From NCBI GenBank assembly GCA_948467605.1, contig CAOKET010000002.1, forward strand, positions 14,410 to 78,409: 64,000 bases of DNA, written 5' to 3'. The notes below the pieces were generated by a model, which was not told where the DNA came from, ran no database searches, and saw only the letters and a program-made list of their open reading frames with translations. Made by a program: the position numbers and the translations under genes. Origin of the DNA: an uncultured Mycoplasmatota bacterium (lineage in GTDB: Bacteria > Bacillota_I > Bacilli_A > RF39 > UBA660). This document shows, piece by piece, positions 242 through 37,050 of this stretch (within the stretch, counting starts at the first letter, position 1; each line of letters starts with the position of its first letter).

Positions 242-1096
242 TTATTTTATCTTAACTTTTCTATCATTAATTACTTGTTCTATCATAAGATAATTCATTT
301 TAAATCTAACCTTTATTCTATCTCTAACATTTGGCTGTATTTTAGTTTTTATTCTTTTTTCTACCTTTTTTAGTATTTCTTCTATGTTATCTTCATCGAT
401 AATTTTTAATTTTTCTACAATTATATCTCTATATATAGAATCGCTATAACATATAAATTTGCTAAGTAGGTTGTAACTATAACCATTTACGGTTGTATGA
501 TGATCTTCTCTATTTATTCCTACCGAATAAATACCCCTATTAATAGAATAATATGATAACATTTTTTCATTATCAAATACTTTTGCAAAATGTATTCCAT
601 ATTCATTTTCTACTATTCCAAAATTTTCTATGTGTCTATCTATATTACCAATTAAAATGTCAAATATGAATATATTAATTAATTCTTCCATTAATATTTT
701 TATTTGTTCATTGCCATAAAGTTGTGATAATGCTACCCATATGTCTTCTAAATTATTATATCTTTCTAATTGTCCTTCTTTAAATGCTCCTTTTAGAATT
801 TGTTCCATAGTTATATATTTATCACTTGGTGATAAAAAACTTTCACTTATTACTCCGATAAAATTATAGTTTGATGCCAAATCATAATGTGTACATGGTA
901 TACCAAATTGTTTTGCTATTTCTTCAGCGATTAACTCATTATATGCCCCATCAATAATTTTTGATTTTTTGAAAAAATACTTTTTATCTTTATAGTAAAA
1001 TGAAAAATGTCCAGTATATTTGTTAATGTATTGCATGGTTTCGCACTTTAATTTTTCTATTTCAATAAATCCTAGTTCATCTCTTGCCTTTTCCAT
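242..1096 (-). CDS. HipA-like / PI3-PI4-kinase-like protein kinase domain protein
   Basis: A catalytic-loop-like motif GNIDRHIENFG (DRHxxN), as in HipA_C and PI3/4-kinase catalytic loops. 284 aa. No adjacent HipB-like HTH gene. Confidence 0.4.
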   Translation of the reverse strand: MEKARDELGFIEIEKLKCETMQYINKYTGHFSFYYKDKKYFFKKSKIIDGAYNELIAEEIAKQFGIPCTHYDLASNYNFIGVISESFLSPSDKYITMEQILKGAFKEGQLERYNNLEDIWVALSQLYGNEQIKILMEELINIFIFDILIGNIDRHIENFGIVENEYGIHFAKVFDNEKMLSYYSINRGIYSVGINREDHHTTVNGYSYNLLSKFICYSDSIYRDIIVEKLKIIDEDNIEEILKKVEKRIKTKIQPNVRDRIKVRFKMNYLMIEQVINDRKVKIK

Positions 1097-1687: not shown

Positions 1688-2149
1688 TTAGTCTATATTT
1701 ATATTTACACTACCAAAATAATTACGTGCTTTTATTATTAAATAGTTACTACCATCTTTTATATTAAGAGCAAATTCATATTCACCACTTTTTGTTGCAA
1801 GTATTTTTTGTTTTCCCTTTAAATTCATAATTACTTCTATATCTCCTGAATAATTATCTATACGTAATTTAATGTGTATTGTTCCACCATTTTCTCTTTT
1901 TAGCGTTGTTCCACCAAATAATATTTCTTTTCCATTAAAGTTTTTATACTTTGCTTCATAAGTTCCTACATAATGGTCTTCCCCAAATTTGCGTTTTCCT
2001 TTTAAAGTTATATTATTAGTTAGAATTAAATCCCCAATATTTTTATTTATATTATCATAAGTATTAATAATCATGTTCTTACTACATCCTTGGCAAAGTA
2101 CTATACTAATTACTAATGTAAGAGCAAGAAACCATATTTTTTTTATCAT
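1688..2149 (-). CDS. Lipoprotein of unknown function, downstream of the Bce-type transporter
   Basis: Signal peptide with a lipobox-like LCQGCS. 153 aa. Same strand as the upstream ABC transporter, 19 bp downstream of it. Confidence 0.5.
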   Translation of the reverse strand: MIKKIWFLALTLVISIVLCQGCSKNMIINTYDNINKNIGDLILTNNITLKGKRKFGEDHYVGTYEAKYKNFNGKEILFGGTTLKRENGGTIHIKLRIDNYSGDIEVIMNLKGKQKILATKSGEYEFALNIKDGSNYLIIKARNYFGSVNINID

Positions 2150-2168
2150 TTAATCATCTTCCTCAAAG

Positions 2169-4235
2169 TTATCTATCCTTAATAATATTTTTACTGCAAA
2201 TATATGTAATTAGAAAATATCCACCATATATAATAACGATTACACTAGCAGTCATGATAATTGATGGTAATAATTGATTTGTACCAAAAGAGGATAATAT
2301 ATAATTGCAAAATTTAATTCCAAAAACGGAATGAATAATTGCAATTAATAATGGGAACATAAAGAATATAGCAATTTGATTAAATAACGCTTTATTCAAC
2401 GATTTTTCATCTGTTCCTATTTTTCTTAGTACTATAAATCTTTCTTTATTGTCTGTACTTTCTGACAATTCCTTTAACGCTAGTATTGCAGCACTACTAA
2501 TTAGGAAAATTATACCTAAATAAATACCAATAAATGTTACCATTGCACCAAGTCCTACACTTGATTCATATATGTGTAACTTTGTTGCTGTTTGTAAGTT
2601 AGTCATACTAGCATATGGATGACTTTCAATACTTCGAACTATGTTTTCTATATTTTCTTTTTCCTTCTCTATTTTTACATTATAATTTCCAATTATTACA
2701 CTTTGTATACGAATTGACTCATCAACAGCATTATCTGGTACTATGAATATTCCAGTATTCATATGATTACTAGACATATGATAAAATCCATTTATAACTT
2801 TATCGTACTTTGGGCTATAAGTTTTGCCTAGTAATGTAATAGGAGTATTTAATTTTAGAGATTCATTTCTCATTATATTTGTCTGTTCATAGTCAGCTAT
2901 TATGATATATTCATCGTCATTCAATGATAATTCATCTAAGTTAAATAATCTTGCTATCTTGTTATAATCACTTAATTTTATAAACTCTTCTTTCGCATTA
3001 AAGTCTGCAAGTGGATAGAGTCTATGTGCCTCATCATAATATGAACCTAGTGTGTCTTTAATTAAAATGTCATCAGTGGAATATGTATTAAATTCTATTA
3101 TATCTTTTAAATATTTATCTATATCATAATCTAATTTTTCTAGGGTTTCTCTTGCTGATATTTTGGAGTCTTCAATCATATTTATATTATATCTCCAATT
3201 AGAATTTGCAATTTCTTCGGTCAAATCTAATGTTTTATAAAATTCAACATCAGCAGGTGCAAGTGTTTTTAAATTATGTGTCATAGAATTTTTGATAGAT
3301 AATGCACTAGATAATACACATATTGTTACAAAAAGCATTAAACATATAATTGTCATTGATACAACTGTTGTATTTATCTTGCTACTTAATTGTCTTAAGG
3401 TAAAACTGTTTAGTCCCCTATAATAAAGTTTTTTCATACTCATTACTATTTTTAGTATTAAGCCTGATAAAGACCAAAATATAAGAAATGTCGATACTGC
3501 ACCCATTATTATTGGTTTAAATATCTCAACTGCATTTGCTAGAGAGTTAATTCCATTAGTAACTAGGTAATAGGCGTACCCTAAGATACATGATGATATT
3601 ATAAATATTATTATACAAATAATAGGATTTTTTAGTTTTATTTTTTCAGATTTTTTACTTCCATGAATCAAGTCTATAAGTTTACATCTACTAACATTAA
3701 TCGTATTAAATATCATTACGAATAAATACATAATACCAAAATAAATTAATGTTTTAATAAATGAACTATTAGAGAATATAAATGTGAATTTAGTTAAATC
3801 TGCTTCAAACATATTTGCAACAAGTATACTCATAAACTGTGATAGTATAATACCAATCGCAAGTCCAACTACAAGTGATATAATTCCTATAAAAAGTGTT
3901 TCAACAAATAAAATCATAGATATTTTTCTTTTACTCATACCTAAAGTTAAATATATTCCAAATTCTTTTTTCCTTCTTTTTATTAAAAATCTACTTGCAT
4001 ATATTATTAAGAAACCAAGTATAAATGCAATAAAAACACTTACACCTGATAATAAATTAGTCATTAATTTTATAATGTCTCTTGTATTTGAACTTACATT
4101 CATCATAACAGTTTGACTATCAAGAGCATTAAATATATAAAATATTGCAACTCCAAGAATAAGTGTAAAAAAGTAGATGGCGTAATCTTTAAAACTTTTT
4201 CTTATGTTTTTTAATGATAATTTAAATAACATCAC
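2169..4235 (-). CDS. BceB-type ABC transporter permease (FtsX-like, 10 TM with a large extracellular domain)
   Basis: 688 aa. The pattern of TM helices and a roughly 200-aa soluble loop between TM7 and TM8 is typical of BceB/VraG. Its start overlaps the end of the ATPase gene by 14 nt. Confidence 0.8.
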   Translation of the reverse strand: MMLFKLSLKNIRKSFKDYAIYFFTLILGVAIFYIFNALDSQTVMMNVSSNTRDIIKLMTNLLSGVSVFIAFILGFLIIYASRFLIKRRKKEFGIYLTLGMSKRKISMILFVETLFIGIISLVVGLAIGIILSQFMSILVANMFEADLTKFTFIFSNSSFIKTLIYFGIMYLFVMIFNTINVSRCKLIDLIHGSKKSEKIKLKNPIICIIIFIISSCILGYAYYLVTNGINSLANAVEIFKPIIMGAVSTFLIFWSLSGLILKIVMSMKKLYYRGLNSFTLRQLSSKINTTVVSMTIICLMLFVTICVLSSALSIKNSMTHNLKTLAPADVEFYKTLDLTEEIANSNWRYNINMIEDSKISARETLEKLDYDIDKYLKDIIEFNTYSTDDILIKDTLGSYYDEAHRLYPLADFNAKEEFIKLSDYNKIARLFNLDELSLNDDEYIIIADYEQTNIMRNESLKLNTPITLLGKTYSPKYDKVINGFYHMSSNHMNTGIFIVPDNAVDESIRIQSVIIGNYNVKIEKEKENIENIVRSIESHPYASMTNLQTATKLHIYESSVGLGAMVTFIGIYLGIIFLISSAAILALKELSESTDNKERFIVLRKIGTDEKSLNKALFNQIAIFFMFPLLIAIIHSVFGIKFCNYILSSFGTNQLLPSIIMTASVIVIIYGGYFLITYICSKNIIKDR

Positions 4236-5081: not shown

Positions 5082-6101
5082 TTACTTTAAAACTTCATAA
5101 TATCTATTTTTAGAAATTATTATTGATACTTTTGTATATTTATTTTCAGTTGATTCTATTTCTATTTTATGGCCTAATTTTTGACATAAGTTTTTAGCAA
5201 TGAATAGGCCCATACCTGTTGATTTTGTCATTATTCTCCCATTTTTTCCAGTAAATGTTTTATCAAATACTTTTCTTATATCACTAGGTTGTATACCTAT
5301 ACCATTGTCTTCTATAGTTAATATTATTTTATCCTCATAATCATGAGTGTCTATTTTAACATAAGAATTTCTTATTTTTCTTTTATATTTTATACTATTA
5401 TTTATTATTTGGTTTATTATAAATTCTAACCATTTGGAGTCTGTATATATTTTATACTCTACATTTAATACTATTAAATCTATTTTATTTTCTAATAAGT
5501 CATCTTTATTTTTTAATGCCACATTACTAATTATTTTATTTAGTGAAACTTCATTTATAAGATAGTCTTTTTCTGCATTTTCACTTCTTGCATAATATAG
5601 AACCTGCTCTACATAGTTTTCGAGTTTTTTTATTTGTTCTTCATATTTTTTATCAAGAATACTACTATTATTATGGGTCATTAAAACAAGAGATGCGATT
5701 GGTATTTTTACCTCATGAATCCACATTTCTATATACTCCTTAAAATCATTCATTTGTGATTCAATAGAATTTATAAATTCCATCATAGATTTATTTACCT
5801 CATAAAGCGCTTGACATAAAATCTCTCCATCATAAAAGTTAGGTTTATTAATTGTTTCTAAGACCAAGTATGCTTTATCAAGTTTTTCAATATTAGATAA
5901 AAGATTTGTATAAAAGTCTTTTCTTCTAAAATACTCTATTGATAAAATAACTATAATAAAGACAAATAGTATTACTGATGTGACTAATATCAAAGATTTA
6001 TCTATTTTAAATGCTAAAAACATTAATAATAGTACTATATATATTACTAAAAATATAATTATTAAGTATAACTTGTCATTTAAGAATTTTTTTAAACTCA
6101 T
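5082..6101 (-). CDS. BceS-type intramembrane-sensing histidine kinase
   Basis: Two N-terminal TM helices with a minimal extracellular loop. H-box HEVKIPIASL. HATPase G-boxes (DNGIGI, GMGL). The ATGA start/stop overlap with the response-regulator gene indicates translational coupling. Confidence 0.85.
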   Translation of the reverse strand: MSLKKFLNDKLYLIIIFLVIYIVLLLMFLAFKIDKSLILVTSVILFVFIIVILSIEYFRRKDFYTNLLSNIEKLDKAYLVLETINKPNFYDGEILCQALYEVNKSMMEFINSIESQMNDFKEYIEMWIHEVKIPIASLVLMTHNNSSILDKKYEEQIKKLENYVEQVLYYARSENAEKDYLINEVSLNKIISNVALKNKDDLLENKIDLIVLNVEYKIYTDSKWLEFIINQIINNSIKYKRKIRNSYVKIDTHDYEDKIILTIEDNGIGIQPSDIRKVFDKTFTGKNGRIMTKSTGMGLFIAKNLCQKLGHKIEIESTENKYTKVSIIISKNRYYEVLK

Positions 6102-6760
6102 GATAGTATGTAACCTATACCTTTCCTCGTTTCAATGGCATTTTCATATCCAACGCTTTTTAATTTTGATCTTAGTCTACTTATATTAACAGTTAGTGCA
6201 TTATCATTAATATATTCATTATTATTCCAAAGATCAGTCATAAGTTCATCTCTAGTAACAATTTTATTTTGATGAGTTAAAAGATAGTTAAAAATAATCA
6301 TTTCATTTTTAGTTAGTATAACTTCTATATCTTCTCTTTTTATAATACCTTTTTGCATATTTATATCTAAGTCTTTATAAATTAATATATCATTATTATT
6401 TCCAGTTCTTTTTAAAACGGCTGCTATTCTAAGAAGTAGAATATTTGGATTGTATGGTTTTGTAATATAGTCATCTGCACCATAACTCATTGATAATACT
6501 TCATCACTTTCTTGGTTTCTACTAGTTACCATAATAACAGGAACATTTGATTTTTTCCTTAAATTTTGAAGAAGTAATTCTCCATTTATATATGGTATAT
6601 TAATATCTAATAATACTAAATCTGGTTTTATTTCCAATATTTCATTAATAGCATTTTCAAAATTATATATAATAAAGGAATTATATCCAGAGTTTTGTAG
6701 TAGGCTTGCTAATTCATCTCTAATTACTTCATCATCTTCTATTATTAGTATTTTTTTCAT
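6098..6760 (-). CDS. OmpR-family response regulator (BceR-like)
   Basis: REC domain (IIEDDEV, LDINIP) plus a C-terminal winged-helix trans_reg_C (TVNISRLRSKL...GYIL). Confidence 0.9.
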   Translation of the reverse strand: MKKILIIEDDEVIRDELASLLQNSGYNSFIIYNFENAINEILEIKPDLVLLDINIPYINGELLLQNLRKKSNVPVIMVTSRNQESDEVLSMSYGADDYITKPYNPNILLLRIAAVLKRTGNNNDILIYKDLDINMQKGIIKREDIEVILTKNEMIIFNYLLTHQNKIVTRDELMTDLWNNNEYINDNALTVNISRLRSKLKSVGYENAIETRKGIGYILS

Positions 6761-6853
6761 ATACTCACCTATATATATTATAACATGTATAATAATATAT
6801 TAAACGTTACAAAATTGTAAGAATAAAAAAATACAAACATAATTATTCGTATT

Positions 6854-8238
6854 TTATTTCATTATATTTTTTAAAGGCACAGCAATACTCTTTAGTTTTT
6901 CAAAACATTGTTTAGCCCTTTTTATTTCAAGTTTATTCATTGTAACATATCCTCTTGATGTACCATCACTAGGAAGGTCAACAAGTAGTGCATAATCATC
7001 TATACCAATCCATCCATTATTAATTATTTTAATAAGTTCTGGATGATTTTTTCTTAGTTCATCTATATCAACAAAACTCGTTATTATCTTGTTACTGGAT
7101 AGATATCTTTGAATATATTTGTTACTTTTATATATTTCAATATTAGATGAACTAAATATAAATATTCTATGCATTTTTACACCGCGATCTGCCGCATCAA
7201 AATTACTTTGAATAAATTTTCTTTCTGCAGGATCTTCATTCCATTCATTATCCATCATAGTAGATGTAATCCACATCTGTGAACCACTCTTAGTTTCATT
7301 AAAGAACTTGTCTAAGATTCGGTAAAATTTTCCTGAATCTAAATCTTCTGTTTTGGATTGTTCATCAAATGCCAAATATCCACCATCTGATATTAATGAA
7401 CTACCATTAGTATATTTATGTCTTGTGAGCATTAGATAAATATCATCTGCAATTTCATATGGGTCTCCAAGACGTTTCATAGGTATAGAGGATGATGTTT
7501 TATTAAATGAATCATCACTTTCCATTACACCGCCTATCCATCCTGCTACTACTGAATTAAATCGTACCCCATACATTTCTGTATAAACATTTGCAAATGT
7601 TTTAACAAGATTTTCCTTTGCTGCTTGTGCTGATGCATACGCAGATGCTCCAAACGATCCTCGATATGCTTCAATACTATTTACTATTACTATACTAGAT
7701 TCAAAGTTCATCTTTTTTACTATTTCTCTTACTAATAAATTTGCTGCAAATACATTTACTCTATAACTATCTTCAAATTTATCGTAATCAAAATCTAGTG
7801 AATCCTCCAATTCAAAGTATATTTCCATAAATACAAATCCATAAATGTCACCATGTATATCTCTTACTGTATTTAAAAGCGTATCTCTATTAAAGTAGTC
7901 TACTACCCTTAATTCTACATCACTAGTTATTAAAGTTTTATCTATATCACTATATTGTTGATATAATCCTATAATATAATATCCTTTTTCTAGTAAGATT
8001 TTTGTTAGTTCTTTACCTATTTCAGAATTAATACCTGCAATAACAATTACTTTTTTATCAAGTTGTTCTTTTGAGTAAGCAGTTCTTTTATCTATTGGTT
8101 TACTAGTATTTTTAGGAATATTCCACCTTCTACCTATTTTAAATGCTCCTGGTATTCTGTTGTTATTTAGTAAATTTACTATTCTTCTTTCACTTATTCC
8201 CCAAAGTTTAGATGCCTGTTTTACTGTTAAATATTCCA
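6854..8238 (-). CDS. HTH (excisionase/MerR-like HTH_17) fused to a degenerate SDR/NmrA-like Rossmann domain plus a C-terminal domain of unknown function
   Basis: The likely start is MEYLTVKQASKLWGISERRI (RBS GGTGAT upstream). The N-terminal HTH is followed by VIVIAGINSEIGKEL (glycine-rich NAD(P) loop). An SDR-like YASAQAAK replaces the catalytic YxxxK (K to Q). The C-terminal ~170 aa are unassigned. Confidence 0.55.
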
Positions 8239-8376
8239 TTTCTATCACCAATTTTATAATATACCTAGTTCGGAACAATGTCAATATGTATGTACTTTAT
8301 ATAGTGATAGAAATTATTGTTTAAAATGCAAAAAAGAAATGATTTGTTGTCATTTCTTAAATAAAGTTTACAATTT

Positions 8377-10995
8377 TTATTTTATTTCAAACCTTTTTAC
8401 TAATGTAATAGATGTTCCATTCTTATCTTTTGTGTTAATTGATAGTTCGTATGTTCCTTCTTGAAGTGTGTAATTCATAATTTCAATTGAAAGATGTTTT
8501 GGAGTATCATTATCAATTGAATAAAGTAGTTTTGCAGGAAGCGAACCATTTTCAACCACTGATAATTTAACATCATCTGATGTTACCCAATCAATAGACT
8601 CATTAAAATCTATTGAAATAGACTTGTTATTGGAAACATTAAAATTAGTTATTTGAACTGTACTCTCTGGTTCAGTTGGTTTATCAGGTGATACATAATC
8701 AGGAAGTTTATAATGATCAACAAAGCCAGTACGATAGTTTCCAACTTCATCTATAAATAATGCCCAAACTCTTGTATTTTTTGTCACCTTAATTCCTGTT
8801 AAATCAATGGTAATAGTATTAGAACCAGCATTTAATGTTTGTTGTTTACTTTCTATTGCTCCAGTTAATATATCATTTGCAAAAGGTGTAGTTGAGTTAT
8901 TAGCATATATTGCGCCATTCCATTCATAAACACCATAATATACAACTCCTGGTTCATCTGAATTAAATGTAAATTCTGCAGTATTTTCATCAACTCTAGT
9001 CACATTATCTACTGCACCTGTAATTACAGGTGGGTTAAAGTGAGATACAAAGGTACCTTCTATTTTCTCATTTTCAGATATTTTAATTTTAACGGTATAC
9101 TTATTATCTTTATGTCCATAATTATCAGGAACGATTAAAATATATGTTAATCGATCTGGACTTGTAATAAAAGTTGCACCATTTGTTGTTAAGTTTTTTT
9201 CTTGTGGACATTCTATTTCAAAATCACTTAATGTTAATTCTTTTTCAGGTGCTTTATTTAATACAAAGACAAAGCGATTAATAATTTCTTCTTTTGCATA
9301 GGTTATTTGGTAACTACTTCTATTTACTTCTTTTATTTGGCTAGGTATTTCAAAAGGTCCTTTTACTTTAGCAATATTATCAAAATATCCCTCTAAAACG
9401 TAATATAAATTATATGATTTTCCTGCTTCTAAATTATCTATTGAAATTATATTGTATCCTACCTTCACAGGCTCAGATTTTCCTTTTGCCTTTAATGATT
9501 CTGCACTAATGATTTCTTTCGTTGTATTATCTTCTAGTATGTAATATATATGTCCGCCTTCATCTACACCATATAATTCTAATGTGGCTTTTTCATCAGA
9601 TATTCTTTCAACTACTACATTGTTTACAGTTGGATTTGCATAATCTGTATCAAAATCCCTGCTTATAATATTTCCATTTGGAAGAGTAATGTAAAGAGCA
9701 TAAGAATCATTTTTGTAATAAGAAGTAGTTAATGTATATGTTTTATTATCAGTTGTAGTAAGATTAAACAAAGTTATACTTTTTCCAGCATTACAAATAA
9801 CAGAAATATCATTTATAGTTAAATTAACTGGTTCGCTTAAAGTAAATGTAACGCTTCCCTGTGTATTTGAGATGGCACTTACAATTTCAATTTTGTTTTC
9901 TTTTCTAATTAAAATATTATCTATGTTTTCACCAATTGTAGGTTGGTTTGTAACATTTGTATATATCATTGTATTATTTGATTCGATTGTAGTATCAATT
10001 ATTGTTCCATTTCCTGATACTGTTGTATTTTCTCCTTGATTTTTAAAAGTTTTAATTGTATTTCCTTTATTTACTCTAATAGTACTACTTTCTTTATTTG
10101 TGAAAGTATTAATTGGTGCATTGACAATAATTGTAGCATTACTACTTGAATTTGTAAGCGTATCTATACTCCCGTTAATAGCAATTGTTCCCTGTGTATT
10201 TAAAGTAGCATTTTTTATTGGGACATTTAAAACTACTTCAGATCCAGAATTAACTTCTACATTTGTAACACTAGTTGTTCCGTTTATTTCAATATTACTA
10301 TTTATAGAAATTGATTGTACTGTACTTCCATTTTTTAAATTAACAGTTGCCCCATCTAGTGCTTTGTTCATTCCAACAGTTGCTCTAGATCTTAAAACTA
10401 GTCTTTTTGTTTGATTAGTTACATCAATTGACGCTAGGGAGGAATTTATAATATCTAATTGATAATTTCCTGGTTTTTCTAATACTAGTTTATTATTAAC
10501 TTGTATGCTGTCTAATACAATTTTTACATTTTCTTCTATATTTGAACTAACAGTAAGTGTGTTATATTTCTTATTTGATACTAGTATTTCACCATCTTTT
10601 ATCATACTATTAGTAATTATTAAATCTTCAATTTTTTCTGGTTCATTAGGTTGACCTGGTTCAGATGGTTTGGCTGGCTTTGATGGTTTTGTTTGATTTG
10701 AACCTGATTGGGTATTAGAGTTTGTACCAGTTGATGGGTTGTTTTCAACTTCTGTAGATATGTGATTTTTATCCTCGCTAGAGTCTTCTTGTGTTACATC
10801 ATTATTATCTACAGTTTGATCTTTTGAATCCGTGTTTAATTTTTCATCATTATCAATTACTGGTTTTTGATCTTGAGGTTGTTTTTGATTTTTTATATGA
10901 TGGTTATTTTTAATAATAAAAGTACAAGTGATTATAACTAGTGCACAAACAACAACAGCACAAATAGCAGTAATTATTTTTGAGTTTTTACTCAT
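8377..10995 (-). CDS. Large cell-surface protein: N-terminal membrane anchor, Pro/Ser/Thr-rich linker, beta-helix-like repeat region
   Basis: N-terminal TM (IITAICAVVVCALVIITCTFII). A low-complexity PST-rich stretch (SKPAKPSEPGQPNEPE). Long N/T/S/V-rich repetitive segments typical of right-handed beta-helix adhesins. Confidence 0.6.
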   Translation of the reverse strand: MSKNSKIITAICAVVVCALVIITCTFIIKNNHHIKNQKQPQDQKPVIDNDEKLNTDSKDQTVDNNDVTQEDSSEDKNHISTEVENNPSTGTNSNTQSGSNQTKPSKPAKPSEPGQPNEPEKIEDLIITNSMIKDGEILVSNKKYNTLTVSSNIEENVKIVLDSIQVNNKLVLEKPGNYQLDIINSSLASIDVTNQTKRLVLRSRATVGMNKALDGATVNLKNGSTVQSISINSNIEINGTTSVTNVEVNSGSEVVLNVPIKNATLNTQGTIAINGSIDTLTNSSSNATIIVNAPINTFTNKESSTIRVNKGNTIKTFKNQGENTTVSGNGTIIDTTIESNNTMIYTNVTNQPTIGENIDNILIRKENKIEIVSAISNTQGSVTFTLSEPVNLTINDISVICNAGKSITLFNLTTTDNKTYTLTTSYYKNDSYALYITLPNGNIISRDFDTDYANPTVNNVVVERISDEKATLELYGVDEGGHIYYILEDNTTKEIISAESLKAKGKSEPVKVGYNIISIDNLEAGKSYNLYYVLEGYFDNIAKVKGPFEIPSQIKEVNRSSYQITYAKEEIINRFVFVLNKAPEKELTLSDFEIECPQEKNLTTNGATFITSPDRLTYILIVPDNYGHKDNKYTVKIKISENEKIEGTFVSHFNPPVITGAVDNVTRVDENTAEFTFNSDEPGVVYYGVYEWNGAIYANNSTTPFANDILTGAIESKQQTLNAGSNTITIDLTGIKVTKNTRVWALFIDEVGNYRTGFVDHYKLPDYVSPDKPTEPESTVQITNFNVSNNKSISIDFNESIDWVTSDDVKLSVVENGSLPAKLLYSIDNDTPKHLSIEIMNYTLQEGTYELSINTKDKNGTSITLVKRFEIK

Positions 10996-11205: not shown

Positions 11206-11922
11206 TTAACGATTACTTTTAAAATCAATATTAGATAACTTTGCTTGTTTAATTAAGTCTTTTGTCGATAATTTATATTGTTTTCCATCTTTTATAAAAT
11301 AAGTTCCACATTGTCTAAATTCAAAACTAACGTTTTTTCTGATACATTGTTCTCTAATATCTAAAGCCCAAGAATAGTCAAATACTCTAGCATTACAATC
11401 TGATTCTCCACCAACCACTACAAGTTCGATTGTTTCAAGATATTTTTCTATATCAATTCTTTCTAATAATGGCTGTGCTGTAATACATTTATGTTTTATT
11501 GGTAAGTCTTTAAATATAGATAATTTGTAATCTGCATTCTTCCTATTTTCGATAGTACAACATACAACTACATTATCATATCCATCTTTCCAATCATTTG
11601 GAATACATTTCATAAATCTATCAATTCTTTTTGTTAAAAATAGAAAAATACAATCTTGTCTTTCTCTTATCATATTCCAACAATCATCACGCCACTCATC
11701 TGCTTCTTCAATTAAAAAGTCAGTTGAAAAACATAAATAAACAATACCTGATTTCATTTTATAGTTGCCATTTTTTAATTTTTCTATTGGTTTTTCGAAA
11801 TCCTTTGTTTTTATAATTTCATTAGTATTTATATTTCTTTTTAAATCACCTTTATGAATATAGCAATGTAAACACCCATCACTACATTTTTTACACCCTC
11901 GCCATGGATTCCACATTGCCAT
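11206..11922 (-). CDS. DUF5131 (phage Gp37/Gp68 family) protein with a radical-SAM-like CxxxCxxC motif
   Basis: The N-terminus WNPWRGCKKCSDGCLHCY matches the family signature (WNP..GC...S.GC..CY). A GGE-like motif (VVGGESD) follows downstream. The probable start is the ATG (MAMWNPW), with RBS AGGGG 8 nt upstream. Confidence 0.6.
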   Translation of the reverse strand: MAMWNPWRGCKKCSDGCLHCYIHKGDLKRNINTNEIIKTKDFEKPIEKLKNGNYKMKSGIVYLCFSTDFLIEEADEWRDDCWNMIRERQDCIFLFLTKRIDRFMKCIPNDWKDGYDNVVVCCTIENRKNADYKLSIFKDLPIKHKCITAQPLLERIDIEKYLETIELVVVGGESDCNARVFDYSWALDIREQCIRKNVSFEFRQCGTYFIKDGKQYKLSTKDLIKQAKLSNIDFKSNR

Positions 11923-11933
11923 ATCATTCACCC

Positions 11934-12386
11934 CTAAAATCTTGATTTTTCATAATTGTAAGGAATGCTTGTTCCTACAACAACATCTTCTATCTTTTCT
12001 ATAATTAACCAATCATCCATATTACCTTGATGGTCAAAGTCTAATGGATTAATGCTTTCTACGTTATTAAATTCCACTAAACATAGACACTTTTTATGCC
12101 ATCTTTCTTTTTGTTTGTCAGTTAATTGTAATTTACTATTATTGTCTTCAATAGTTTTTATTATTTCATCTTCTGATAATTTAACAAAATTTTGAACATC
12201 TTTTACAACTGCCTTTGCTGTTATTTTTTTTGTTCCTTTTTCCATAAAATAAAGTATTTCGTCTTTAAATACTCTACTATGTGGTATTTTTCTTCCTGCT
12301 GCTCCTCTTATAATCATTGTTTTACTACCATCTAAAATCTTATTTAATTCTTTTGATTTGTCATCACAATATACTAAATGTACCAT
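11934..12386 (-). CDS. ASCH/PUA-like small beta-barrel protein, co-operonic with the DUF5131 gene
   Basis: 150 aa. GSKTMIIRG resembles the ASCH GxKxxExR motif. 11-nt gap to the downstream gene, which carries an RBS. RBS AAAGGAGA upstream. Confidence 0.4.
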   Translation of the reverse strand: MVHLVYCDDKSKELNKILDGSKTMIIRGAAGRKIPHSRVFKDEILYFMEKGTKKITAKAVVKDVQNFVKLSEDEIIKTIEDNNSKLQLTDKQKERWHKKCLCLVEFNNVESINPLDFDHQGNMDDWLIIEKIEDVVVGTSIPYNYEKSRF

Positions 12387-35063: not shown

Positions 35064-36335
35064 TTATAAACTAGTTCTTATTAATCTGTCTACTGCCTTC
35101 ATAACACCCAATTTACCATATTCATATGTTAACCCGCCTTGTTGATAAGCAATATAAGGAGGTCTTATTGGACCATCGCATGAAAGTTCTATTGATGAGC
35201 CTTGTGTAAATGTACCTGCAGCCATTATTACTTGGTCTTGATAACCAGGCATATCCCAAGGAATTGGTACTACAAATGAATCAATTGGAGATGCCATTTG
35301 GATTCCTTGGCAGTAACTAATAAGTTTATCCTTATCATTAAATTCTATATTTTGTACAATATCAACTCTTTGATCATTCCATTTTGGTTCTACTTTATAA
35401 CCTAGATCTTCTAGTACTTTACTTGTTAATATCGCAGTTTTTAGGCTACTTGCTACTGCATTTGGTGCCATAAATAATCCTTGTAGTAACGATTTATTCA
35501 CACCTAATGATGGTCCAACTTCTTTTCCTTCACCTGGAACGGTTAATCTTTCTGAACATAGTTCTATTAAATCTCTTCTACCTGAAATATAAGCGCCATT
35601 TGGTGCGATTCCCCCACCTAAATTTTTAATTAATGAGCCAACTATTATATCTGCGCCTACTTCAAGTGGAGACTCTTTTGATACAAATTCACAGTAACAA
35701 TTATCTATCATTATTATTACATCTTTATCTACACTTCTAATTACTTCTATAACATTTTTTATTTTTTCTATACTTATACTTTTTCTTGTTGAATATCCTT
35801 TTGAACGTTGTATTTCAATTAGTTTTATTTTTTTTGATTTTAACGTTTCCTTAATTTTTTCGTAATCAAATTCATCATTTATTAAATCTATTTGTTCATA
35901 GTTTATTTCATATGATTTTAATGAACTATTATTTTCTGTTATTCCTATTACCTCATCTAGTGTATCATATGGTTTACCAGTTATACTTAACATTGTATCA
36001 TTTGGACGAAGAAGTGCGAATAATGCTACTGTAAGAGCATGTGTTCCTGATATAAATTGGTTTCTAACTAAACTATCTTCTGCACCTAAAACGTAGGAAA
36101 ATATGTGTTCTATTGTTTCTCTTCCTATATCATTATATCCATATCCAGTTGTAGATGAAAAATGATTTTCTGACACTTCATATTTATTAAATGCGCTTAA
36201 TACCTTTAAACTATTGTATTCGCATAACTCATCTATTTCCTTAAATTTATTCTTTAATTCTTCCTCCGACTTTTTTATTAATTCTATAGTATTATTACTT
36301 ATTCCTAGTTGATTATACATATTAATATCCTCCAT
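35064..36335 (-). CDS. PLP-dependent enzyme of the methionine-gamma-lyase-like 'aluminium resistance' (YnbB) family
   Basis: 423 aa. The N-terminal STTGYGYND...ISGTHAL pattern and a PLP-lysine region are typical of this Firmicute family. Confidence 0.7.
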   Translation of the reverse strand: MEDINMYNQLGISNNTIELIKKSEEELKNKFKEIDELCEYNSLKVLSAFNKYEVSENHFSSTTGYGYNDIGRETIEHIFSYVLGAEDSLVRNQFISGTHALTVALFALLRPNDTMLSITGKPYDTLDEVIGITENNSSLKSYEINYEQIDLINDEFDYEKIKETLKSKKIKLIEIQRSKGYSTRKSISIEKIKNVIEVIRSVDKDVIIMIDNCYCEFVSKESPLEVGADIIVGSLIKNLGGGIAPNGAYISGRRDLIELCSERLTVPGEGKEVGPSLGVNKSLLQGLFMAPNAVASSLKTAILTSKVLEDLGYKVEPKWNDQRVDIVQNIEFNDKDKLISYCQGIQMASPIDSFVVPIPWDMPGYQDQVIMAAGTFTQGSSIELSCDGPIRPPYIAYQQGGLTYEYGKLGVMKAVDRLIRTSL

Positions 36336-37050
36336 CTACTCTAATAATTTCTCCATTTATATAACTTGCTTCATCACTTGCTAAAAAGAACACTACATTT
36401 GCAATTTCTTCTGGCTTTGCAAATCGTTTTAAGAATATTTTTTCCTGTTCTTCCATAATAAATTCTTCATCTAAATCCTTAGTCATTTCTGTTTCTACCC
36501 AACCAGATGCGATTGCATTTACATTTATATATGGCGCGTATTGTAATGCTAGATTATGAGTTAGCGATATCATTCCTGCCTTTGATGCATCATAATCTAT
36601 ACTCATTGGATAAAATGTATCAATTCCATTAGTTGATGATATATTTATTATTTTACCTGACCTTTCTTTTAACATATATTCTCCAACATATTTACTTACA
36701 AGAAATGCCCCAACTAAGTTAACATCTAGGATTTTTCTAAAGTTTTCTGCTGTCTTATCTTCAAATAAAGTATCTATTGCTATACCAGCGTTATTTACTA
36801 AGCAATCAATACTACCAAATTCTTTTATTGATTGCTCTACCATTTGTTTTACTTCTTCTTCTTTAGCCACATCACATTTTATTGTAATTGCTTTTACATT
36901 GTATTTAGTTTCTATATCATTTTTTATTCTAAGTGCATTTTTAAAATCTGTATTATAATTAATTATTACATTGTAGTTTTTACTTGCAAATTTATATGCG
37001 ATTTGTTCTCCTATACCTTTACTAGCACCTGTTACTAATACTGTTTTCAT
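36322..37050 (-). CDS. Short-chain dehydrogenase/reductase (FabG-like 3-oxoacyl reductase)
   Basis: TGASKGIG, NNAG, and the catalytic YDASKAG (YxxxK). Confidence 0.8.
   Translation of the reverse strand: MKTVLVTGASKGIGEQIAYKFASKNYNVIINYNTDFKNALRIKNDIETKYNVKAITIKCDVAKEEEVKQMVEQSIKEFGSIDCLVNNAGIAIDTLFEDKTAENFRKILDVNLVGAFLVSKYVGEYMLKERSGKIINISSTNGIDTFYPMSIDYDASKAGMISLTHNLALQYAPYINVNAIASGWVETEMTKDLDEEFIMEEQEKIFLKRFAKPEEIANVVFFLASDEASYINGEIIRVDGGY

Follow-up and report, generated by a model that had tools for sequence, protein, structure and literature searches.

In Rex and in the NmrA/HSCARG proteins, a domain with a dinucleotide-binding fold serves regulation rather than, or besides, catalysis. 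Rex has an N-terminal winged helix and represses by binding to an operator. NmrA-type proteins are atypical or extended folds of the short-chain dehydrogenase/reductase (SDR) type, without the classical active-site residues and without a DNA-binding domain of their own (PMC2792337). In BirA, PutA, and NadR, a helix-turn-helix (HTH) or ribbon-helix-helix domain is fused to an enzyme-type domain. Finally, the TrmB family of archaeal regulators that respond to sugars, and TrmBL2, join an HTH to an effector domain with a phospholipase D (PLD)-like subdomain. The gene described here lies on the minus strand of a 64,000-nucleotide stretch of DNA (the window) from an uncultured Mycoplasmatota bacterium (GenBank assembly GCA_948467605.1, contig CAOKET010000002.1, positions 14,410 to 78,409). 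Its product (the target) consists of an HTH head, an SDR domain, and a C-terminal domain with a PLD fold. TrmB and Rex/NmrA are its closest working analogues, and it is a member of none of these families.

The best explanation, to which a probability of about 0.5 is given, is that the target is an autoregulated one-component DNA-binding protein. Its sensing and oligomerisation module would be made of an SDR domain with a relocated lysine and a PLD-fold domain without the HKD motif. All three domains are carried by at least 203 homologues of 460-466 residues, so this layout is far beyond chance. The family is a conserved three-part protein of uncultured gut bacteria.

A conserved site in the promoter of the gene

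A first-pass annotation, made from the sequence alone, had described the N-terminus as an excisionase- or MerR-like HTH. A DNA-binding fold is indeed found there. The Pfam family HTH_17 (PF12728) scores 34.6 bits with the whole protein and 39.8 bits (E 5.3e-10) with residues 1-61 alone, above its gathering score of 27, and the PHROG matches at the N-terminus include 'HTH DNA binding protein' (E 2.4e-10) and 'excisionase' (E 1e-6). In the AlphaFold2 model this part has the beta-alpha-alpha-beta-beta topology of a winged helix, with a strand at 3-4, helices at 6-13 and 17-25, and a hairpin at 33-35 and 38-42 (predicted local distance difference test score, pLDDT, 75-85). When the HTH alone was searched against PDB sequences, no meaningful relative came up. 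The basic linker that follows the HTH (Table 1) is retained in distant HTH-fused relatives.

The open reading frame (ORF) is real, and the earlier span of 6854-8238 needs a correction of one nucleotide at its upper end: the ATG start is 8239-8237 and the stop codon is 6856-6854. A mechanical list of ORFs had extended the gene to a TTG at 8284 (6854-8284). This start was rejected, as the TTG forms the opening bases of the -35 hexamer TTGACA. The promoter is sigma-70-like, with TTGACA, a spacer of 17 nt, and TATTAT (11/12 match). Between the promoter motif and the ATG, which lie at a fixed distance of 16-22 nt in the orthologues, the sequence GGTGA is conserved. The leader would be very short, with transcription starting near 8249. 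An AT-rich hairpin and T-run at about 8334-8358, seen by eye, end the upstream gene; the terminator scan overlooked the hairpin because the scanner demands G-C pairs. Since the upstream gene ends in this way and a promoter is present, the gene owns its 5' transcription signals.

The sequence of a -35/-10 spacer is not normally conserved. Upstream regions were aligned from 35 orthologous loci, whose proteins have 35-83% identity to the target. Their sources are metagenome-assembled genomes of uncultured bacteria of the 'Bacilli' or 'Tenericutes' type and three such genomes of higher GC content. A 29-nt stretch, TTGACATTGTTC[CT][TG]AA[CT]TCGGTATA[AT]TAT, matches at 20 or more of its 29 consensus positions in 33 of the 35 loci. 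In 33, the core TTC..AA.T..G.ATA of the spacer shows 100% conservation (TTC, AA, G, and ATA), and the -35 hexamer is kept to the same extent. This conservation of the spacer, in 33 of 35, extends over species with proteins at 61-83% identity. The 25 nt upstream of the promoter motif contain no conserved column. Expressed as the IUPAC motif TTCYKAAYTCGGWATA, the site occurs exactly once per locus in 29 loci, always just before the gene and nowhere else in the flanks of 6 kb on either side. In the window, the single site is that at the gene's own promoter (ATTGTTCCGAACTAGGTATATT), even when three mismatches are allowed.

The site is also symmetric. The 22-mer centred on AATT has a mean self-complementarity of 14.3/22 against a background of 6.3 +/- 3.0, and only 0.3% of random 22-mers reach 16 or more. 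Examples of the dyad are AATATTCCGAATTCGGTATATT (20/22, locus L009) and ATTATTCTTAATTCGGAATAAT (18/22, locus L044).

The same motif precedes HTH-fused relatives that have diverged deeply, including L044 (35% identity to the target) and the P0123 and P0130 families. In the P0123 family, whose SDR domain is eroded, two operator-like sites are present (L067, 1100-1185), the first inside the -35/-10 spacer and the second (ATTATTCTTAAATCGGAATAAT) downstream of the -10 hexamer and ahead of the ribosome-binding site. In the P0130 family (L070, 4000-4065 and 4063-6113), the operator-promoter heads a two-gene operon, the first gene of which encodes 312 residues with no Pfam match. A natural variant, from a single species, can be found in locus L037, where the HTH is cleanly absent and a protein of 407 residues (5983-7206) begins just before the glycine-rich loop. 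Upstream of it (5930-5982) the promoter is kept and the symmetric core is altered (TTCCGTTTTCAGTATA), with AATT changed to TTTT and CGG to CAG.

Among species the gene changes its neighbours, and the promoter and operator travel along. Because the spacer dyad is conserved and moves with the gene through changing neighbourhoods, the site is probably the operator of the gene's own HTH and thus autoregulatory. Together with the HTH_17 domain, the dyad makes the protein very likely a DNA-binding regulator, in line with the first-pass annotation; this is an inference from sequence.

According to this explanation, the winged helix would bind the dyad operator, with the consensus ATT(G/A)TTC(Y)(K)AATTCGG(T/A)ATAAT, probably as a dimer or higher oligomer. 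The operator fills the spacer of the gene's own promoter. Since the spacer has the optimal length of 17 nt, occupancy should repress, most likely by occluding RNA polymerase. The protein may have further targets beyond its own promoter. The consensus supplies a precise, testable candidate operator sequence. Inspection of the wing residues of the HTH (GRRW vs GM[CY]W) and the operator half-site (CCGAA vs CTTAA) revealed no simple correlation between the two.

MerR activators bind an operator in an over-long -35/-10 spacer of 19-20 bp and have a long coiled-coil dimerisation helix after the HTH. The target shows none of these traits: its spacer is 17 nt long, its HTH is followed by the basic linker and the SDR domain, and it matches no MerR profile.

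Two domains derived from enzymes

The full-length AlphaFold2 model (mean pLDDT 69.6) shows the winged helix, an alternation of Rossmann type, and, modelled with confidence, a C-terminal alpha/beta domain. The last of these, about 170 residues, had been called uncharacterised. That description holds for Pfam, which gives no match to residues ~292-461 even at E<=10, and there is no PHROG or PADLOC match either; yet the domain has a PLD fold without the HKD motif and is the most informative part of the protein. Its place in the phospholipase D/Nuc superfamily is based on structural likeness. The catalytic motif HxK(x)4D is absent from all 50 family members and all 150 representatives searched, and no histidine is invariant in residues 292-461. 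Residues of this domain that are conserved include Ser326, Glu332, Trp333, Glu339, Arg358, Asp421, and Arg429.

A profile of this domain, searched against 1.84 billion representative sequences, found 231 proteins at E<=1e-3. Six of 117 relatives scanned individually match Pfam DUF6879 (PF21806) at E<=1e-3, and three relatives have a sub-threshold DUF6879 match on the same region (20-23.1 bits, E 5.6e-5 to 5e-4; cut-off 23.9). The target itself has no DUF6879 match at E<=10. Judged by these profile scores, its C-terminal domain is a distant relative of DUF6879, not a member. A search for DUF6879 in the literature library used found no paper.

The domain occurs with varied N-terminal partners. 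Among the best 150 representatives, 84 have at least one hydrophobic N-terminal segment, typically two, followed by a helical linker, with a total length of about 300 residues. Ten have an HTH_17-like N-terminus, three a metallophosphoesterase, and two a radical SAM fusion; the others are GNAT fusions or fragments. Such a range of partners (two-transmembrane, HTH, metallophosphoesterase, GNAT) is typical behaviour of a regulatory or sensor domain.

Some of these fusions can be described individually. In P0149, P0176, and P0197 (~560 residues), the PLD-like domain is C-terminal to a calcineurin-like metallophosphoesterase, and the latter matches the PADLOC model 'Effector Endonuclease' and the candidate PDC-S60 (E 1e-24). 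P0133 is fused to a GNAT acetyltransferase, and P0217 and P0268 to a radical SAM/SPASM-like enzyme, which is homologous to the radical SAM gene of the cassette described below.

In other bacteria, the membrane-anchored form belongs to a three-gene cassette. It consists of a stand-alone SDR with YxxxK intact, a 2-oxoglutarate (2OG)-Fe(II) oxygenase, and a two-transmembrane protein with the HKD-less PLD-fold domain at its end. In some loci, the place of the 2OG-Fe(II) oxygenase is taken by a TauD dioxygenase or a radical SAM enzyme. For instance, the P0139 gene stands behind a stand-alone SDR and a 2OG-Fe(II) oxygenase, that of P0136 overlaps the start of a stand-alone SDR, behind which lies a radical SAM gene, and that of P0145 is preceded by a TauD-type dioxygenase. 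A metagenome scan with a 10-sequence alignment added 14 further loci. Wherever upstream sequence exists (L053, L054, L058, L060-L064, L065, L066), the SDR and/or the 2OG-oxygenase adjoins the domain protein. The cassette recurs in unrelated metagenomes (L047-L054, L058, L060-L066); its gene order varies, and no other gene is conserved with it. PADLOC has no model for the cassette SDR or the PLD-like protein.

The cassette SDRs are the closest relatives of the target's SDR domain, with 34-35% identity over 245 residues (E 4e-40 and 2e-36), compared with about 1e-11 for any SDR in the PDB. They have its peculiar motifs GSFGASAYA and AGWIGGVM, but keep YxxxK. This kinship and these common motifs show that the target joins two partners of the cassette in one protein, an HTH having replaced the membrane anchor. 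A second SDR ORF of 242 residues is present elsewhere in the window (36325-37050, minus strand), with ~30% identity to cassette-type SDRs (tblastn E 1e-19 to 2e-20).

The SDR domain itself (aa ~63-290) is readily recognised, and the expected match to adh_short (PF00106) was obtained above its gathering score (49.3 bits, E 5.5e-13; cut-off 26.6). The best Pfam match is adh_short_C2 (76.8 bits, E 2.5e-21; cut-off 27). Mean column identity is 0.85 in this domain, with 108 of 228 columns invariant, vs 0.79 in the HTH and 0.79 in the C-terminal domain. The SDR domain is clearly functional in the target's own family.

The second glycine of the SDR loop normally contacts the pyrophosphate of the cofactor. 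Five independent alignments to solved FabG-type SDRs pair AGINSEIG with TGxxxGIG and place a glutamate at this glycine. The glycine-rich dinucleotide-binding loop that the first-pass annotation had noted is thus present, but it departs from the classical cofactor motif, TGxxx[AG]xG (PMC2792337, Table 3), by an acidic residue, Glu or Asp, at the [AG] position. A canonical AGxxxGIG loop is present in two more distant members of the fused group, L040 and L041, which also retain YxxxQ...K.

In the same five alignments, Ser188 and Tyr201 fall on the Ser and Tyr of the catalytic site and Gln205 falls on its Lys; the target has no intact YxxxK pair. YA[SA][AST]Q is found in 118 of the 120 closest homologues, and Gln also occupies Tyr+4 in all distant fused sequences examined. 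The replacement of the catalytic Lys by Gln in YASAQAAK, as first read, is therefore real and conserved, and it is particular to the lineage fused to an HTH. Wherever an HTH-fused sequence carries Gln at Tyr+4, Tyr+7 is a Lys (YASAQAAK, YAATQAAK, YAAAQAAK). The two occur together in 7/7 fused sequences examined; in five stand-alone relatives the Lys is at +4, and +7 is occupied by Met, Val, Ile, or Thr. In these sequences, Gln+4 and Lys+7 behave as a coupled switch. Asn162, Ser188, Tyr201, Gln205, and Lys208 are invariant in a 50-sequence alignment, as is Asp114 at the adenine-pocket position.

The arrangement Asn-Ser-Tyr-x6-Lys is the signature of FabL, an active enoyl reductase of B. subtilis (PMC9260719), and Yx6K is the active-site motif of the 'divergent' SDRs (PMC2792337, Table 3). 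Loss of YxxxK is therefore no proof of inactivity. The argument from the Lys to Gln change alone to a non-catalytic protein therefore fails, as Lys208 at Tyr+7 gives a FabL-like signature. This is a caution for other families too: when a Lys appears at Tyr+7, loss of YxxxK does not prove a pseudoenzyme.

A different picture is provided by the deeper branches of the lineage. Only two of eight HTH-fused representatives at 50% identity that match HTH_17 still match an SDR model, and the other six match none. P0123, P0126, P0130, and L044 (35% identity to the target) have lost the Ser/Tyr segment by deletion and retain their HTH, KP-DKR linker, and PLD-like domain. Because the lineage as a whole tolerates loss of the SDR, this argues that its shared function would not be SDR catalysis.

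These observations bear on a first alternative, in which the protein is a bifunctional enzyme and repressor similar to BirA, PutA, or NadR. The SDR would be active through Asn162-Ser188-Tyr201-x6-Lys208, and the HTH would repress its own gene according to occupancy by substrate or cofactor. The move of Lys from +4 to +7 would then reflect a new chemistry, such as the enoyl reduction that FabL performs, and not decay. Besides the FabL signature and the 'divergent' spacing, this alternative draws on the coupling of Gln+4 and Lys+7 in all seven fused sequences, the SDR being the most conserved domain, the enoyl-reductase-type model adh_short_C2 as best Pfam match, and the protein of L037, which has no HTH and an otherwise intact SDR and C-terminal domain.

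In FabI and FabL, it is the Tyr that has shifted, and the Lys is at its usual position. The target has no insertion relative to its YxxxK relatives, and here the Lys, not the Tyr, is displaced, one turn down the helix. The spacing Y201...K208 fits the 'divergent' motif YxxMxxxK, without the Met at +3. The divergent-type cofactor motif GxxxxxSxA is absent, with Gly and Glu at its Ser and Ala positions (G69-INSEI-G75-K-E77). The acidic residue in the loop and the loss of the catalytic segment in lineages that keep the HTH, C-terminal domain, and operator are further difficulties, and a bifunctional enzyme of this kind is considered a tentative and rather less probable alternative.

A second alternative is the redox sensor of the Rex/NmrA kind that was proposed at first, in which NAD(P)H or NAD(P)+ would be bound, but not turned over, by the SDR domain, and this binding would set the affinity of the HTH for DNA. 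This is a special case of the autoregulated DNA-binding protein, with a named ligand. The retained Rossmann fold, the invariant Asp114, the loss of the canonical Lys, and the canonical loops of L040 and L041 are in its favour, and SDR scaffolds are documented as redox sensors (PMC2792337). However, the 'hallmark' of an NmrA-type sensor is not borne out: NmrA (PF05368) does not match at E<=1, and Asn162, Ser188, and Tyr201 are invariant, so 'NmrA-like' is an analogy and not membership. Neither Rex family, the winged helix or the CoA-binding-type Rossmann domain, appears in the Pfam scan at E<=1. The Glu or Asp at the second glycine would face the pyrophosphate. The NNAG and PG motifs are absent, though likewise in presumably active stand-alone relatives with YxxxK; their absence was rejected as a sign of decay. 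Relatives with an SDR eroded beyond recognition cannot sense dinucleotides, yet keep the remaining architecture. A dinucleotide sensor would also leave the highly conserved PLD-like domain unexplained, and it is judged doubtful.

A third possibility is that the protein is an ordinary SDR oxidoreductase, with N- and C-terminal extensions of no regulatory meaning. This is what public names imply, with one member called 'SDR family oxidoreductase' by NCBI and one '3-oxoacyl-[acyl-carrier protein] reductase' by JGI, and the SDR models do match. The equivalogs of NCBIfam, however, are all far below their cut-offs (best 73.9 bits vs 238), and an ordinary enzyme would account neither for the conservation of the HTH and PLD-like domain across the homologues, nor for the conserved operator, nor for the lost canonical Lys. 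It is regarded as highly improbable. Among the other searches, the PHROGs scan gave only generic FabG-like, HTH, and excisionase matches, PADLOC scans of the whole protein and of the C-terminal domain gave none, and a literature search for HTH-SDR pseudoenzyme regulators returned nothing pertinent.

In the autoregulated DNA-binding protein that is preferred here, the SDR and PLD-fold domains, both derived from enzymes and joined by descent, would act as a sensing and oligomerisation module. For this module, binding of a small molecule is more likely than its turnover, because the canonical Lys became Gln and the deeper branches deleted the whole catalytic segment. Candidate ligands are a dinucleotide or a metabolite related to the substrate or product of the cassette, and binding of the ligand would modulate binding to DNA.

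Several points weigh against this explanation. The window's own copy of the operator is a weaker palindrome (12/22). Protein and site are paired by co-inheritance only, and another factor could recognise the site. In the local flanks searched, the gene itself is the only target to be seen, and a regulator of this kind has no evident output. AlphaFold2 gives a poor model of the SDR domain's second half (pLDDT 34-60). The conservation of the SDR domain and of its residues Asn162, Ser188, Tyr201, and Lys208 suits an active site equally well as a binding site, and Tyr-x6-Lys is catalytically competent in FabI and FabL (PMC2792337; PMC9260719).

Neighbouring genes and wider implications

The first-pass annotation had placed the gene directly upstream of a Bce two-component module. 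The adjacency is real. Downstream, genes of the same strand encode a response regulator, a histidine kinase with two transmembrane segments and no sensory loop, an ABC ATPase, and an FtsX permease of 688 residues. The module begins 93 nt downstream with no recognisable terminator between, and the same arrangement is present in one other species (L013, on the same contig as L005), so that the target could be thought of as its dedicated regulator. The functional link is not supported by the comparison of loci. The full module adjoins the gene in only 1 of 38 species-level loci, with the transporter alone in one more (L012). No flanking family is common to more than 5 of the 38, from which no regulon can be inferred, and in the P0047 group the gene sits between divergent and convergent genes that are unrelated. 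In the promoter region of the Bce module, the window scan (<=3 mismatches) found no operator motif. A role as regulator of the Bce module is thus largely refuted and extremely unlikely, and the adjacency is incidental. The Bce promoter has a different, perfect 14-bp palindrome, TTACAATTTTGTAA (6807-6820, minus strand), unrelated to the target's operator, which may be the response regulator's own binding site.

Upstream of the gene, an ORF of 872 residues (8377-10995, minus strand) encodes a protein with an N-terminal signal anchor, a low-complexity stretch rich in Pro, Ser, Thr, and Asn, and no Pfam match. It ends at the hairpin and T-run described above, and in L038 a 60%-identical relative precedes the homologous gene. 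A HipA_C-like kinase ORF is found at the left end of the window (242-1096), and a DUF5131 protein (11206-11931) is directly followed by a protein of 150 residues without a Pfam match (11934-12386). All three may be toxin or phage-related genes. Most long ORFs of the window are on the minus strand. The window has no tRNA gene and no Rfam family at the gathering threshold, and its first 20 kb have a GC content of ~23-30% and a GC skew that is negative almost throughout.

Table 1. Coordinates of the gene, its expression signals and its domains in the window, and of two cassettes in their own loci.
Feature	Position	Strand	Remarks
Coding sequence	6854..8239	minus	461 aa and stop codon; homologues of 460-466 aa begin at the same Met
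-35 hexamer TTGACA	8279..8284	minus	promoter scan; kept in 33/35 orthologous loci
Candidate operator	8258..8279	minus	dyad-symmetric; fills the -35/-10 spacer, overlaps the -10 hexamer
-10 hexamer TATTAT	8256..8261	minus	promoter scan
Shine-Dalgarno GGTGAT	8244..8249	minus	5 nt ahead of ATG
HTH_17 winged helix-turn-helix	8111..8233	minus	aa 3-43; Pfam, PHROGs, AlphaFold2
Basic linker motif K-P-x-D-K-R	8084..8101	minus	aa 47-52; K47, P48, D50, R52 invariant in the 50-sequence alignment
SDR-derived Rossmann domain	7370..8053	minus	aa 63-290; Pfam and NCBIfam
Glycine-rich loop AGINSEIGK	8012..8038	minus	Glu (Asp in most homologues) at second Gly of TGxxxGxG
YASAQAAK	7616..7639	minus	Tyr201, Gln205 (classical Lys position), Lys208 (Tyr+7)
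PLD/Nuc-fold domain without HKD motif	6857..7366	minus	~170 aa, aa 292-461; distant DUF6879-like relative
L047 cassette	563-1333; 1339-1998; 2186-3148		SDR; 2OG oxygenase; two-transmembrane PLD-like protein
L051 cassette	231-1151, 1148-1912, 1953-3035		

If the autoregulated DNA-binding protein is the right explanation, it is a compact example of a regulator that arose when two partners from an operon were joined to a DNA-binding head and both domains of enzyme origin took on new roles. It would provide a first functional handle on DUF6879-like domains, of which there are at least 231 representative clusters. It would also correct the public names ('SDR family oxidoreductase', '3-oxoacyl-ACP reductase') of a family that is widespread in uncultured low-GC gut Bacilli, and it flags an uncharacterised three-gene cassette.

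A more speculative proposal, of low probability, extends to the cassette as a whole. The HKD-less, DUF6879-like PLD-fold domain may be an unrecognised but widespread receptor for small molecules, which couples the product of a pathway of SDR and 2OG-oxygenase or radical SAM enzymes to interchangeable outputs (a two-transmembrane effector, a metallophosphoesterase, or an HTH). The cassette would then be a new signalling or defence system, and the target an offshoot that became a transcription factor, in which the biosynthetic SDR was retooled into part of the receptor.

Comparison with known systems

TrmB and TrmBL2 have only the PLD-like subdomain in common with the target, and this likeness is structural. 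The HTH of TrmB belongs to PF01978 and that of the target to HTH_17, and no TrmB profile matches. TrmB has a coiled-coil arm and a second, beta-barrel subdomain that binds sugar, both of which the target lacks. The target has an SDR between its HTH and its PLD-like domain and comes from a bacterium, and no sequence similarity to TrmB was detected.

Also close are DUF6879 and PLD-fold domains that are non-catalytic, for example FAM83 DUF1669; for the first, the profile scores given above place the target outside the family.

With Rex the target shares the N-terminal winged helix. It differs from NmrA in having an SDR of the classical type, with Asn, Ser, and Tyr kept and Lys displaced.

FabL and FabI resemble the target in the Asn-Ser-Tyr-x6-Lys signature, the Yx6K spacing, and the adh_short_C2 model. 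Unlike them, the target lacks GxxxxxSxA, its Lys is displaced with no insertion that moves the Tyr, it is fused to an HTH and a PLD-like domain, and its gene has no context of fatty-acid synthesis.

Finally, autoregulation through an operator in the promoter is plausible for the target as it is for BirA, PutA, and NadR. The enzyme families are unrelated, pathway genes are not linked to the target, and its activity is putative. What the target has in common with these proteins is the plan of an HTH or ribbon-helix-helix fused to an enzyme-type domain.

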